Positions 2,229 to 31,555 of a stretch of 64,000 nucleotides of DNA are shown piece by piece. A model generated the notes under the pieces. The model made no database searches. It worked only from the letters and a program-made list of their open reading frames with translations, and was not told the DNA's origin. The stretch is taken from the NCBI GenBank assembly GCA_964016885.1, contig OZ024742.1:281046001-281110000 (forward strand), given 5' to 3'. A program made the translations under genes and the position numbers. This DNA comes from Eledone cirrhosa. Lineage: Eukaryota. Numbering within the stretch: position 1 is the first letter of the stretch; each line of letters opens with the position of its first letter.

Positions 2229-3247
2229 GAATTAGTATATCTACCAACATATATATACAGATGCATACCTATGCTAGCAAATATATAGGTTTTGTCTTCG
2301 TAACTTTGTGGTTCAATGCAAGGGGATGCAGAACAATTATATGAAAGACGTAAAATAAGAAAATTATAAAAATTAACTTACTTATTATAATTTCACTCCA
2401 ACTAATTAGTTTCTGAAAGGCAATAAACATGGTAGCCGTTCGGAACAACATGGACAAAAATCCTTTCGTCATCAGGGAGGTATATTCTCAGCTAAGTTCC
2501 CAGGCAATGCGTGGACACAGGGAACTTATACAAAAATAATTCAATGGATGGAAAAAGCAAGCGAGGAATAAATTCCAGGACATTGAAAAAATCAATGCCT
2601 ACTTGGTCGGTGGCAAATTCAAAAGAATCAATCACGTGACATCGAGGTTAATCAGTGAGGAGTGGGGTGCTAATAAGACAGTCGCCTGACTATTACTATG
2701 AACCATAGTAGTAGTTTTGGCAAATTTTTGCTCAACAAAATAATTTGGAGATAATTATAAAGAATTAGTATATCTACCAACATATATATACAGATGCATA
2801 CCTATGCTAGCAAATATATAGGTTTTGTCTTAGTAACTTTGTGGTTCAATGCAAGGGGATGCAGAACAATTATATGAAAGACGTAAAGTAAGAAAATTAT
2901 AAAAATTAACTTACTTAGCACCTCACTCCTCATTGATTAACCTCGATGTCATGTGATTGATTATCTTGAATTTGCCACCGACCAAGTAGGCAGTGATTTT
3001 TTCAATGTCCTTTAATTTAGTCCTCGCTTGCTTTTTTCCATCCACTGAATTATTTTTGTATAAGTTCCCTGTGTCCACGAATTGCCTGAGAACTTAGCTG
3101 AGAGTAGACCTCCCTGATGACGAAAGGATTTTTCTCCATGTTGTTCCGGCGGACTCATGTTTATTCCCTTTCAGAAACTAATAGTTGGAGTGAAATTTTA
3201 GTAAGTAAGTAAATTTATATAATTTTCTTATTTTATGTCTTTCATAT
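2229..3247 (-). mobile_element. non-coding PLE pLTR/retrozyme-like element: 532-bp unit, partial repeat and inverted segment, in (TA)n
   Basis: 2229-2385 is repeated at 2761-2917; ~2916-3247 is the reverse complement of ~2339-2673; HHR at 2396-2479 (-) and 3110-3190 (+); (TA)n on both sides. Confidence 0.75.
2396..2479 (-). ncRNA. type I hammerhead ribozyme with long stem II
   Basis: CTCC-CTGATGA-cGAAAGG...CCTTTCa-GAAAC-taatta-GTT-GGAG; palindromic CTAATTAG in stem III; C-A mismatch at the base of stem II. Confidence 0.6.
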
Positions 3248-3264
3248 ATATATATATATATATA

Positions 3265-3740
3265 TCACCTTCGCGGATCTTCAGCTCGGGATGTGTATGG
3301 TTATAGGAACAGGAAGGACAACCGTACGAACGCGCATGCGTAGAAACTCGGTCACTTCACACAGGCAATACAAGACTGCGTGAAGGAGGTGTAAGGGAGA
3401 TAACTGCGAAAGTCCGGAAAGTTTTTAGGTTGAAAATAAAATAAATAGAATTAAAAATAAAATTACAAAGAATCAGTCCGGAGCCTTGTAGTTATGCAAT
3501 AGATGTTTAGTGACGTGTGGACAACGTGTGGTAAATTCACTTCTCGTATTTAGGTAATCACTATTGCGTAATCTCTTTAGGATAGTTATTCGCTCGTCAA
3601 TACATAAGCCACACGTCGGATTTCTCCTTGCGTATGGCTTGGACTTAGTGATGGCTTTCCATTGAATGGAGTAGCCTATACTTGAGTCCTTGAGGGACCA
3701 TACGTGGCTCGCGAGTTTCGTGGATGAACGTCTGTCCCTA
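3265..3740. repeat. unclassified ~475-bp insertion in (TA)n
   Basis: GC-richer segment bounded by TA tracts; no ORF and no complete HHR found. Confidence 0.3.
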
Positions 3741-3904
3741 TATATATATATCTATCTATATATATATATATATATATATATGAGTATAGACATAGAATAT
3801 TCGAAAATATTCTGTATGTTTATAATAAACATTTTGAAGACCTAATCGCTATAGAATAGAATACGTCACGTATTACAATTAGATTCTCGATAAAAGCAAG
3901 GGAA

Positions 3905-3947
3905 GTAATCTACGCGTTTCATTCTTGTTAGAATTCATCAGGACTAC
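3905..3947 (-). ncRNA. type I hammerhead ribozyme in the inverted monomer
   Basis: Exact reverse complement of 4299-4341. Confidence 0.88.
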
Positions 3948-28927: not shown

Positions 28928-30041
28928 GGCTATAACACCCCACTTGCCGATTTTGCAATGGGTAACCCCTGCTTGCCAAGGGAGACGTAAGATCTTCTTT
29001 TTATTCCTTTATCGCTTCCTTTATTTCCTTCCCCCCATCCTTCCTTAGTCCTTCTACCCCAGCTCTTCTTCTTTGTCGGCGTTTTTTCTCGCCCACCCGA
29101 GGCTGCCCTTTTGCCCCTTGTAGCCTTAGTACCCCCACCCCCTCCCCTAGTCTATGATAGATTTGGCGGACTCCGCTTTTTATAGCAGTTGGTTTAGACC
29201 CCGGATACTTGCCCCATTTTTCCGACCGCTCCCACTATTTTCCGTGCCTTCTATATTTCTTAGTGGCACTTATGCCTTATATTCTCGTTCCAGTATTTCT
29301 TTCTTCGCTTTTCTTTTGGGCGGGGTGGATCCTGAATGTATTTTTCCGTATTCCACCCTTACTTCGTACGAACTTTCATGTAGCTTGTTTAAGATCTTTT
29401 AGAGTTAGCATTAGTATATTTTTTTCGGGATTCAGAATTATTATCTCGTACTAGTTTACTTTGCTGCACTGGGTGGTTGCTGGCATTGTGCCGGGATAGA
29501 AACCTTTATTATTTGTTTCGTGGTAGTCTCTTTAGTATTTTGGCCCCACTTGTTGACCCGTCACCGTATGATTTACGTACTTATACCTCTTAAAAGGGTC
29601 CTCGCCTATACCGTCCCACCTAGTTCTTTTACTTATTTCGTTATTTCTTTATTTCTTTCTTTACTTCTTTACTTCTTTCTTTCTTTATTTATTCATTTAT
29701 CTAGCCTAACAATAGCTAGAGACTTAGGTCGTAGAATTTACTTTTTTCTTTACACTTATTCGCTTTTCTTCACTCCCAGTTTTTTTGTTTTTTTTTCTTT
29801 CATATATATTTTTACCCCTCATTGTTCTATCTACCGTTCCGACATCCTCCCCCTCCCTCTCCCCAGTATCTTCTTTGACCTCATGCCAAGCTGTAGCTGG
29901 CACTACCAACGCTTGATTGGGTCTACTCCACCCCCTCCCCTCTTTCTCCTACTGGCAGGTTTAGCCACCATCTCCCCTACTAATTTGCTATCACAGAATT
30001 ACTACTGACTTTTGACAATCACTTTGACCATATATGGAATT

Positions 30042-30135
30042 ACCCCTTGAGAAGATCGGCTATTTAAATACCAGGATAAATTTTCATTTAGTCCAGAATT
30101 AGCCGTCGAAACGGCTTGAGCTCAGCCGTCGGGGT
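30042..30135 (+). ncRNA. type I HHR in the pLTR with U3-A8 variant core (inverted copy at 27147-27240)
   Basis: ACCCC-TTGAGAA-GAtCGGCTA...TAGCCGTC-GAAAC-GGCT(tgagctc)AGCC-GTC-GGGGT. Confidence 0.65.
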
Positions 30136-30539
30136 CTTACCGGTTCCTATATATATATATATATATATATATATATATATATATATACATATATATATAT
30201 ATATATACACAAATATACAATATACACATAAATATACATAAATATACACAAATACATATATACACGCATACACGTATACCAACAGATATGCATACAAATA
30301 TACACGCACAAAAACGAAATATACATATACACATAACCATATACACACATAGCAGTATATACAATATACACACCTATAAACTATATACAAGCATATATAC
30401 GTACGATAAAGTATACGTGCCTCCATAACCATACGGGTAAGGTATACTTACCTATACAAATAAGTAATGATATAAACATAAAATATACTTAGCCACCACA
30501 TCAAGACGTAAATTATCCGCGTATTGTTCGTACTATCCG

Positions 30540-31555
30540 TTAGGGTATAATGTGAGGCTGTAATACAGGAAGGTTTTATGCAATTTGTGTTTACAAGCCT
30601 AAATTGCCTCAGATTTTTTGTTTAAGATGTGATCATTGGCGTAGAGTATTTTCAAGGCTTCAGCGGCGCAGAGATCGCACGGACTTTTATTTCGGTTATA
30701 CGACTTAGCTTTAGCTTGGATCTCCCAGTGTAACCTATATTAGGTGTGGTTGTCTTTCAGTCTCCATATATAGGCTGAAAGTGACGTCATGTTCCTTCTT
30801 AAGGAGTTAAGAAAAGAATGGGTGTGCATGTAAAGACGCTGCTTGTATCTATTGGCGGTTAACCATATGTAGGCCCTACTAGACGTGGGCGTGCCGACCT
30901 TACTTTTGTAGACAATGTTACTGGAGAGGCATTTCCCGGATAGAGGGCAGTCAACCCAATTCTTACAATTACAGTAAGTACTAGCTACAGGGTTGCACGT
31001 GTTACTACGGCTAGGTAATTTAGCTAAATTTGAAGCAGTGATATTATTATGTCCAAAGTTAGGAATCGTAGAGTAAGATGCGTTAACGTATTGCTATTAA
31101 AAATGTTATTATATTTATATGCTGAGGGGAAATGCTTCTTAATAAGGGAGAGAAATATTTTAGCTAATGGTGTGGCCACCTTCATATTATATGGTGGGTT
31201 ATACGATATAATGCGTCGAAATCTATTTTTCCTAGGTTTATGCTCATTCTTAGTATATGCTACCTTATCGACAAATCTACACCGAGCAAGAGCTTCATTG
31301 TAGTATGTGGAATGGTCGGTGAAAATATGCTCGTTTGTAGAAAGACGAGAAAACCTCAAAGAAACGTTTCTTACCAGGTTCTTTTTTATGCTGGCAGGAT
31401 TCGAAATATTTACTTCTGCGTTCACAGATTGACTTTTTTTAGTTTCTGAATATCTGTTAAGGGTAAAGCAGCGATTCTTGCTTAATATATTTGATATATA
31501 TTTATCCTTATCGAGCCCTCTTTGGATTTTAGTCTTCGAATTTATCATTATTACT
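30540..31555 (-). mobile_element. degenerate Hydra-like PLE (RT thumb plus GIY-YIG) with inverted pLTR piece at its 5' end
   Basis: ORF 31024-31548 has KNLVRNVSLRFSRLS..YYNEAL..YNPPYN; downstream CNCKNWVDCPL..NIVYKS..YIWLT..YKQRLYMH. Confidence 0.8.

Follow-up and report, generated by a model that had tools for sequence, protein, structure and literature searches.

How animal retrozymes move, why Penelope-like elements (PLEs) carry inverted pseudo-long terminal repeats (pLTRs) with a tail on one side, and what the hammerhead ribozymes (HHRs) of PLEs do are questions addressed here through one 64,000-nucleotide (nt) stretch of the 3.0-Gb Eledone cirrhosa assembly (GCA_964016885.1, contig OZ024742.1, positions 281046001-281110000; hereafter the window). 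In it, three non-coding families, F1 (2227-3244), F2 (3781-7600) and F3 (15403-17602), lie among three coding families, PLE-A (27053-30148), PLE-B (13951-15138) and PLE-C (26263-31555). F1, F2 and F3 are likely retrozymes that lack long terminal repeats (non-LTR), copied in trans by a PLE reverse transcriptase (RT)/GIY-YIG endonuclease, because they stand as back-to-back arms in (TA)n, of which one has a short 3' end and the other a long one, in exactly the manner of the coding PLEs here. A first-pass annotation had already proposed that the ribozyme arrays are mobilised by a TA-targeting PLE enzyme. Flanks, polarity, the absence of linkage to PLE open reading frames (ORFs) and a shared rule of end sites all lend support to that proposal, and the pairing of end sites is a stronger link between retrozymes and PLEs than the annotation gave.

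Judged by sequence, F1, F2 and F3 fit the description of non-LTR retrozymes, namely tandem, low-GC units with a type I HHR and no PLE coding sequence. Their units measure 533 nt (F1, GC 0.35), 310 nt (F2, 0.35) and about 440 nt plus a TA tract (F3, 0.38), and PLE ORF remnants lie exclusively outside them. A type I descriptor of our own found HHR folds in both F1 arms, in each of 11 units of the F2 310-bp array as well as in its opposite arm, and in two F3 units (coordinates in Table 1); shuffled versions of the window gave 0 matches in nine of ten cases and 3 in the remaining one. Rfam returned just sub-threshold HH9 matches on F2 (23 bits vs 52) and spurious miRNA matches on TA tracts of the window. 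Both pLTRs of PLE-A also hold a type I HHR, in a U3:A8 core variant. When folded as circles, retrozyme units were more stable than shuffles (z about -4), a comparison that is no test of self-cleavage. Arm ends lie 18-220+ nt away from the HHR cut site and never at it.

Each element is built of two diverging arms, with the 3' ends facing outward into (TA)n. Self-BLAST of the window recovered the inversions in the non-coding elements (2338-2677 vs 2910-3248; 3782-4094 vs the 310-bp array; 17483-17603 vs F3 units) and in the coding ones (14005-14064 vs 15081-15141; 27132-27297 vs 29985-30150). The inverted 5' segment that had been described for the non-coding elements is therefore real, but it is actually a second arm, and in F1 the longer of the two (about 690 vs 335 nt) with its own HHR. 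Likewise, an inverted pLTR 5' of the ORF is found in PLE-A and in PLE-B, the latter starting at 13951 rather than at 13995 as first given. The interval 30540-31555, taken earlier for a further PLE of this kind, has no local inverted partner; it belongs to PLE-C, whose main arm continues beyond PLE-A to 26263 with PLE-A nested inside its 3' untranslated region (UTR), and 31400-31555 is the pLTR and tail of PLE-C.

The genome was searched with each family, and for each DNA search the best 40 of 139-2782 candidates, ranked by likeness to the query, were scored. Two sister families that came to light later, in the flanks of other loci, served as hold-out tests: F2b (unit 319 nt, alignable to F2 over its full length) and F1b (unit 546 nt, about 75% to F1). 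PLE-E, with a unit of 4211 nt, is a third coding family in the genome-wide counts. Loci fetched from the genome carry L numbers. Two-armed F2 copies made up 18/20 loci, all head to head, and this polarity recurred in every two-armed copy examined. Their 3' ends occur at either of two places, a fixed short end site (S) and a long 'tail' end site (L) 26-114 nt beyond it; relative to the ribozyme cut, S and L lie at about 131-139 and about 165 nt in F2, and the sites are at about 420 and 533 in F1 and about 60 and about 120 in F3. One S and one L end per insertion were found in 16/18 F1, 17/18 F2 and 12/13 F3 insertions. The hold-out families, in which S and L occupy positions homologous to those in F1 and F2, follow the same rule (F1b 21/21, F2b 16/17), as do PLE-A (33/33, short relatives included), PLE-B (16/17) and PLE-E (6/6). 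If each arm chose its end freely, at most one half of insertions would show this pairing; the totals are 82/87 for non-coding (p 2.5e-19) and 55/56 for coding insertions (p 7.9e-16) against 0.5. These tallies are hand counts over scorable two-armed insertions. They leave aside duplicate loci, single-armed copies (F1 8/29 loci, F2 2/20, F2b 7/27, F1b 18/40) and those two-armed copies in which an end was disrupted or unseen (F1 3, F2b 3, F1b 1, F3 about 5, PLE-A about 7, PLE-B 1).

The lengths of the arms speak to how they arose. In F2, either arm may be the longer one (L 11.3 and S 1.0 units in the window; S 11.0 and L 3.5 units at L042), and both hold 8-9 units at L032 and L038, which excludes simple fold-back copying of one arm from the other. 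Coding PLEs likewise form multi-unit divergent arms, with up to four 3531-nt units in PLE-A. The 5' ends of arms scatter across the unit, and at most junctions the arms have 0-3 letters in common or a few additional ones between them. At several F1 loci (L054, L059, L060, L062, L071, L072) arms end near unit position 325, within the long HHR stem II, possibly an RT pause site or an alignment effect. In L1 twin priming, two target ends prime two cDNAs, which microhomology helps to join head to head; the place of the second primer is internal and random, and it brings the first cDNA to a stop. In the present elements, by contrast, the two priming sites are fixed, while the 5' ends of the two arms scatter. 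L1-type twin priming was rejected on this ground, as in 18/18 F2 junctions the 5' ends scatter over the 310-nt unit and do not lie beside the priming site of the other arm.

The two arms of one insertion also share their variants. In PLE-A, an arm resembles its partner in the same insertion more closely than it does arms of other insertions in 24/24 cases. Rare variants are common to opposite arms far more often than between loci in F1b (0.36 vs 0.05), F1 (0.18 vs 0.03) and F3 (0.25 vs 0.02), a 6-12-fold excess, while F2 units are nearly all identical and make the haplotype test uninformative for that family. Both arms of one insertion thus derive from one haplotype.

The outer ends of all window elements adjoin (TA)n, in agreement with the first-pass annotation, and the pattern extends to the genome. 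AT-alternating tracts adjoin 38/38 F2 arm 3' ends, compared with 4-14% of random positions; (TA)n flanks 42/47 F2b arm ends; and PLE-A, PLE-B and PLE-E all terminate in (TA)n. As TA-rich targets predating the insertion are evident at two loci (L045, L261), the claim that (TA)n is the target stands. A search for empty sites among the fetched loci gave candidates for 8/94 insertions, all of them neighbouring elements or self-matches. The shared target explains the clustering of elements in the window: a TA tract beside one element receives the next. Helper and parasite families had been noted to occur together in this locus; the window copies of PLE-A, PLE-B and PLE-C are all truncated or broken, so that their co-location reflects a shared target and not a local helper. 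The F3 units of the window contain an internal (TA)n of variable length per unit, i.e., this retrozyme carries its own target sequence.

A mechanism can be proposed on these grounds. A PLE protein, probably dimeric, would nick a (TA)n tract on both strands. Of the resulting DNA ends, one would prime reverse transcription at the internal site S and the other at L, with 2-9 nt of TA homology as an aid; each RT would run a variable distance over a repeated template, most simply an RNA circle made by the ribozyme; and the two cDNA ends would then be joined head to head. A wider proposal, which we regard as possible rather than probable, is that PLE integration is an obligate asymmetric double priming, in which a dimer starts cDNAs at S and L on one RNA circle made by the ribozyme, the two cDNAs are extended around that circle, and the start dinucleotide can be copied repeatedly by the RT, as by telomerase. 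Retrozymes would then be minimal substrates, and the PLE hammerhead would exist to make the circle.

Several points weigh against trans copying by PLEs as set out here. Alignments of the retrozyme units with the non-coding parts of PLE-A, PLE-B, PLE-C and PLE-E did not exceed chance for any unit (the best real matches are 18-19 nt, and high z values in these alignments are masked-N artefacts), because of which neither a cis-signal nor the helper was identified. The sharing of rare variants is weak in F2b (0.03 vs 0.01), and the arm-distance test in F1 is not significant (10/14, p 0.12). An F3 array (L096:1-3355) repeats a three-unit higher-order variant pattern; therefore, arrays also grow after insertion or from multimeric templates. 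The pairing of S with L is violated in 5/87 non-coding insertions, of which three resemble palindromes or DNA-level duplications (L054, L078, L089). Further, likeness to the query decided which candidates were scored, and several coding pairs came from listings in which a divergent pair was already visible. Circle formation, cleavage and expression enter this scheme as predictions. Finally, in the accessible text of Frangieh 2024 (PMC11167929), an Anolis PLE protein starts in vitro without homology, and ribozyme cleavage is not needed.

The last of these points bears on the nature of the template. The template for the same class of helper may have been linear, namely a long read-through transcript from an array already in place or two RNAs from one source locus, with long arrays arising partly by later unequal crossing-over, so that no circle is needed. 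Such a template would account for the three-unit pattern at L096 and for the incomplete sharing of rare variants within arms, and HHR mutants had no effect on insertion in vitro in the same source (PMC11167929); the near-identical F2 units cannot separate the two models. It fits poorly with very young F2 insertions in which both arms have 8-9 units with only single-unit private changes, and with the position of the 5' end of one arm, which is not beside the priming site of the other arm as a collision on one linear RNA would give. We consider a linear template somewhat unlikely.

The ends of F1b arms hold a further trace of the copying step. The F1b template has two CT repeats at L. At 18/27 terminal L ends, 4 to 37 or more CT repeats stand ahead of the TA tract (for example L302:1963 and L323:1389, among loci L302-L340), whereas 0/45 internal junctions are expanded. 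The simplest reading suggests telomerase-like repeated copying by the RT at initiation. Alternatively, the run may come from the target, as part of a compound microsatellite, or from later replication slippage, given that (CT)n followed by (AT)m occurs in the genome (35/249 CT runs) and that TA-rich targets pre-exist. What makes this origin doubtful is that the run begins in register with the two CT repeats of the template, that internal junctions do not expand, that a matching run was present on 0/16 opposite flanks listed, and that a CT run lies between two TA tracts only once among 249 CT runs, vs 3072 TA tracts. Contigs aligned to the F1b L junction had no loose end there among the rows listed, a result that is neutral as to the (CT)n. 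At L272, (CA)n follows an F2b S end.

Could the non-coding units instead be solo pLTRs, or 5'-truncated copies of autonomous PLEs outside the sample? Short copies of PLE-A, PLE-B and PLE-C consisting of pLTR arms alone are common, the sample holds the best 40 candidates per search, and pLTR homology is given for 24/57 Xenopus retrozyme families in the available part of Li et al. 2026 (bioRxiv 10.64898/2026.07.22.740005). Nevertheless, in tandem F1b arms the tail continues straight into the start of the next unit at 45/45 internal junctions, unlike PLE-A and PLE-B, in which the tail continues into the ORF. PLE remnants near F1-F3 units (24/77 loci) always lie past a TA run of at least 9 nt. Same-strand junctions to an upstream ORF that are free of TA numbered two among 271 loci, and each is a one-off chimera that cuts the PLE mid-sequence; the retrozyme families thus do not abut PLE ORFs in the manner of pLTRs. 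With no recurring ORF attachment in these 271 loci, a non-exhaustive sample, and no likeness to four PLE pLTRs, we reject this explanation as improbable: by sequence, the F1-F3 units are not solo pLTRs and are best described as non-LTR retrozymes bearing the PLE tail signature.

It is very improbable that ordinary satellites were inverted at the DNA level, by fold-back repair at fragile TA tracts, or that the inversions are chimeras of the assembly, as the arms are unequal in length with two different fixed end sites and unrelated flanks, the same rule holds in eight families and similar joints occur at other positions in public-run contigs, although three exceptions are palindromic (L054, L078, L089) and TA tracts are abundant. 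In those contigs, 10/10 listed F2 joints are head to head with 0-3 shared letters, which argues against an assembly artefact; the run may not be independent of the species of the assembly. Three other public runs, with one 340-nt contig each, were not used since such contigs are expected from a tandem array and a circle alike.

The helper may be any of at least three PLE families with many intact, near-identical ORFs: PLE-A (784 aa), PLE-B (about 1217 aa) and PLE-E (775 aa). The natural ORF of PLE-A has DKT, a CxCx5C linker and, at its C terminus, GIY-YIG without CCHH, with CxxC and CxH flanking E and N, and by these features carries Hydra-clade motifs. The natural ORFs of PLE-B and PLE-E have a DKG-type motif, a Cx2-5CxxC linker and CCHH in the C-terminal endonuclease, which places them with the canonical linker-bearing PLEs of the Neptune/Nematis type. 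A Pfam search assigned PLE-A to no family and matched PLE-B to RVT_1 below threshold, and a homologue search with PLE-A returned 646 homologues without names. In PLE-E (L359-L362), the 775-aa RT frame is overlapped at its start by a different, upstream reading frame of about 450 codons that is out of frame with it; since descriptions of PLEs give a single ORF, an intron or a frameshift is possible.

Any of PLE-A, PLE-B and PLE-E may serve each retrozyme. DNA similarity failed as a guide, as did age, all three families being young, and folding of the S-L regions gave no common structure. TA-free inter-family chimeras join F1b with PLE-A (L204:3624-5528), PLE-C head to head with F3 (L106:783-1422), a Hydra ORF with F2b and PLE-B (L277:827-2296), and an F3-like sequence with F1 (L057:950-1839); they may stem from template switching or deletions. 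As pointers to the helper, the first three are anecdotal and contradictory.

Table 1. Arms of retrozymes and PLEs in the window (strand empty where both arms are combined)
Feature	Position	Strand	Description
F1 retrozyme left arm	2227..2917	-	1.3 units of 533 nt; HHR 2475-2400; 3' end at L into (TA)34
F1 retrozyme right arm	2910..3244	+	HHR 3114-3186; 3' end at S; 8-nt overlap at head-to-head junction
Fragment of another Hydra-like PLE, between TA tracts	3266..3738	-	endonuclease remnant 3515-3724, tblastn E 6e-08
F2 retrozyme left arm	3781..4091	-	1.0 unit; HHR 3941-3911; 3' end at S
F2 retrozyme right arm	4091..7600	+	11.3 near-identical 310-nt units, one HHR per unit; 3' end at L
PLE-B inverted arm	13951..14064	-	pLTR end and tail (L end)
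PLE-B main arm, 5'-truncated	14065..15138	+	endonuclease remnant, 3' UTR, pLTR with HHR-like core, S end
Tiny two-armed PLE-A relative, about 86-89% identical	15170..15372		L arm 15170-15310 (-), S arm 15312-15370 (+)
F3 retrozyme left arm	15403..17408	-	about 3.5 units, each with internal (TA)n; HHR cores 17049, 16265, 15740 (folds 17049-17019, 16265-16235); internal rearrangement at 16604-16658; S end at 15403
F3 retrozyme right arm	17404..17602	+	L end
PLE-C (Hydra-like) main arm	26263..31400	-	broken ORF 31400-30566; 3' UTR split by nested PLE-A; pLTR with S end at 26263
PLE-A inverted arm	27053..27297	-	pLTR with HHR 27235-27152 and about 80-nt tail (L end)
PLE-A main arm, 5'-truncated, Hydra clade motifs	27298..30148	+	open frame 27524-28927 (RT end, CxCx5C linker, GIY-YIG); pLTR HHR 30047-30130; S end
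PLE-C inverted arm	31400..31555	+	pLTR end and tail with internal deletion (L end)

Other HHR features were also seen. F2b keeps the HHR fold through a compensatory change from C3:G8 to U3:A8 (L270:1007), the pair also present in PLE-A (30047-30130), while the sister family F2 has the usual one, a natural covariation. The PLE-C pLTR (26263-26345, 31430-31500) has an HHR-like core with A replacing U4 and without a clear fold. HHR or HHR-like motifs of other families lie at 17779-17741, 23506-23462, 61420-61485, 1337-1365 and 1860-1890, and a further one at 61958-61930 matches the PLE-E pLTR.

The window contains further short PLE-C pLTR copies (10381-10497, 24328-24467), short PLE-A relatives at 62391-62716 (one single arm and one S/L two-armed copy with (TA)20 between them) and older copies of a PLE-B-related family (19873-21900, 25115-25620). 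Long interspersed element (LINE)-type retrotransposons are dense on both strands at 33470-60400, with (ATT)n tracts between them, and a short interspersed element (SINE) recurs at 1481, 10129, 25813, 35318 and 61679. A dispersed cluster of tRNA-His(GTG) genes and pseudogenes occupies duplicated blocks (627-698, 8415-8488, 11159-11230 (-)), with decayed copies near 8714-8795 and 9250-9321. The sequence at 18057-18565 is duplicated at 18766-19303 across a 200-N gap, probably an assembly overlap, and near-perfect palindromes lie at 17724-17842 and 20177-20495.

The rule of one S and one L end offers a sequence-only diagnostic for PLE-made insertions and names exact priming sites on templates of 310-550 nt. 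As three PLE families have intact ORFs in the genome, the mechanism is open to direct in vitro test. If the reading of the (CT)n runs is true, they would count as in vivo evidence that the RT family nearest to telomerase reiterates in a telomerase-like manner.

Retrozyme families and the hypothesis of a PLE helper are already published: the available parts of PMC7229834 and bioRxiv 10.64898/2026.07.22.740005 propose both PLEs as the helper and a circular template giving tandem cDNA for metazoan non-LTR retrozymes. F1-F3 resemble these in that their units, a few hundred nt long and low in GC, lie in tandem, contain a single type I HHR apiece and lack an ORF. The F1 unit is above the 150-450 nt range of PMC7229834 and within the 51-972 nt of Li 2026. 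These papers, in the parts available, argue from HHR type, co-occurrence and pLTR homology and mention neither an inverted arm nor a tail nor a (TA)n target, whereas our argument is made from insertion anatomy without pLTR homology. The word 'inverted' occurs 0 times in the accessible text of PMC7229834 (Cervera & de la Pena 2020), and paired minimal ribozymes on opposite strands are mentioned in that of Cervera 2014 (PMC4209133). The accessible literature outside subscription journals and Repbase notes gave no account of inverted arms or tails in retrozymes, of near-obligate S/L pairing, or of reiteration by a PLE RT; the anatomical link between retrozymes and PLEs, its quantification and the (CT)n trace appear to be new.

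Among coding elements, PLE-A shares with the Hydra-clade PLEs, as described in the available part of Craig et al. 2021 (PMC8557442), DKT, the CxCx5C linker, the lack of CCHH, the CxxC/CxH that surround E and N, the presence of an HHR and insertion into (TA)n. It differs in its 3531-nt unit (theirs are generally under 3 kb), RWR instead of RWK, the U3:A8 HHR core and arms of up to four units. The same source describes Chlamys elements such as MRC1, putatively non-autonomous, which like F1-F3 are non-coding, pLTR-forming and multi-copy head-to-tail and are mobilised by a PLE, as F1-F3 likely are; at the 3' end those elements look like their autonomous partners, and most have no HHR, whereas F1-F3 carry HHRs and have no partner similarity. 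With known PLEs (PMC3846280, PMC8557442, PMC11167929, as far as their text was available) the elements here share the head-to-head inverted copy and a tail that is often at one end alone. The Anolis protein studied by Frangieh 2024 nicks and extends both strands in vitro and starts internally at two sites bounding the tail. Its element, PAc, started at non-homologous sites, whereas the ends here show short TA homology. In comparison with the tails of known PLEs in these sources, those described here measure 26-114 nt, their one-S/one-L pairing is quantified and near-obligate, and the rule reaches non-coding retrozymes.

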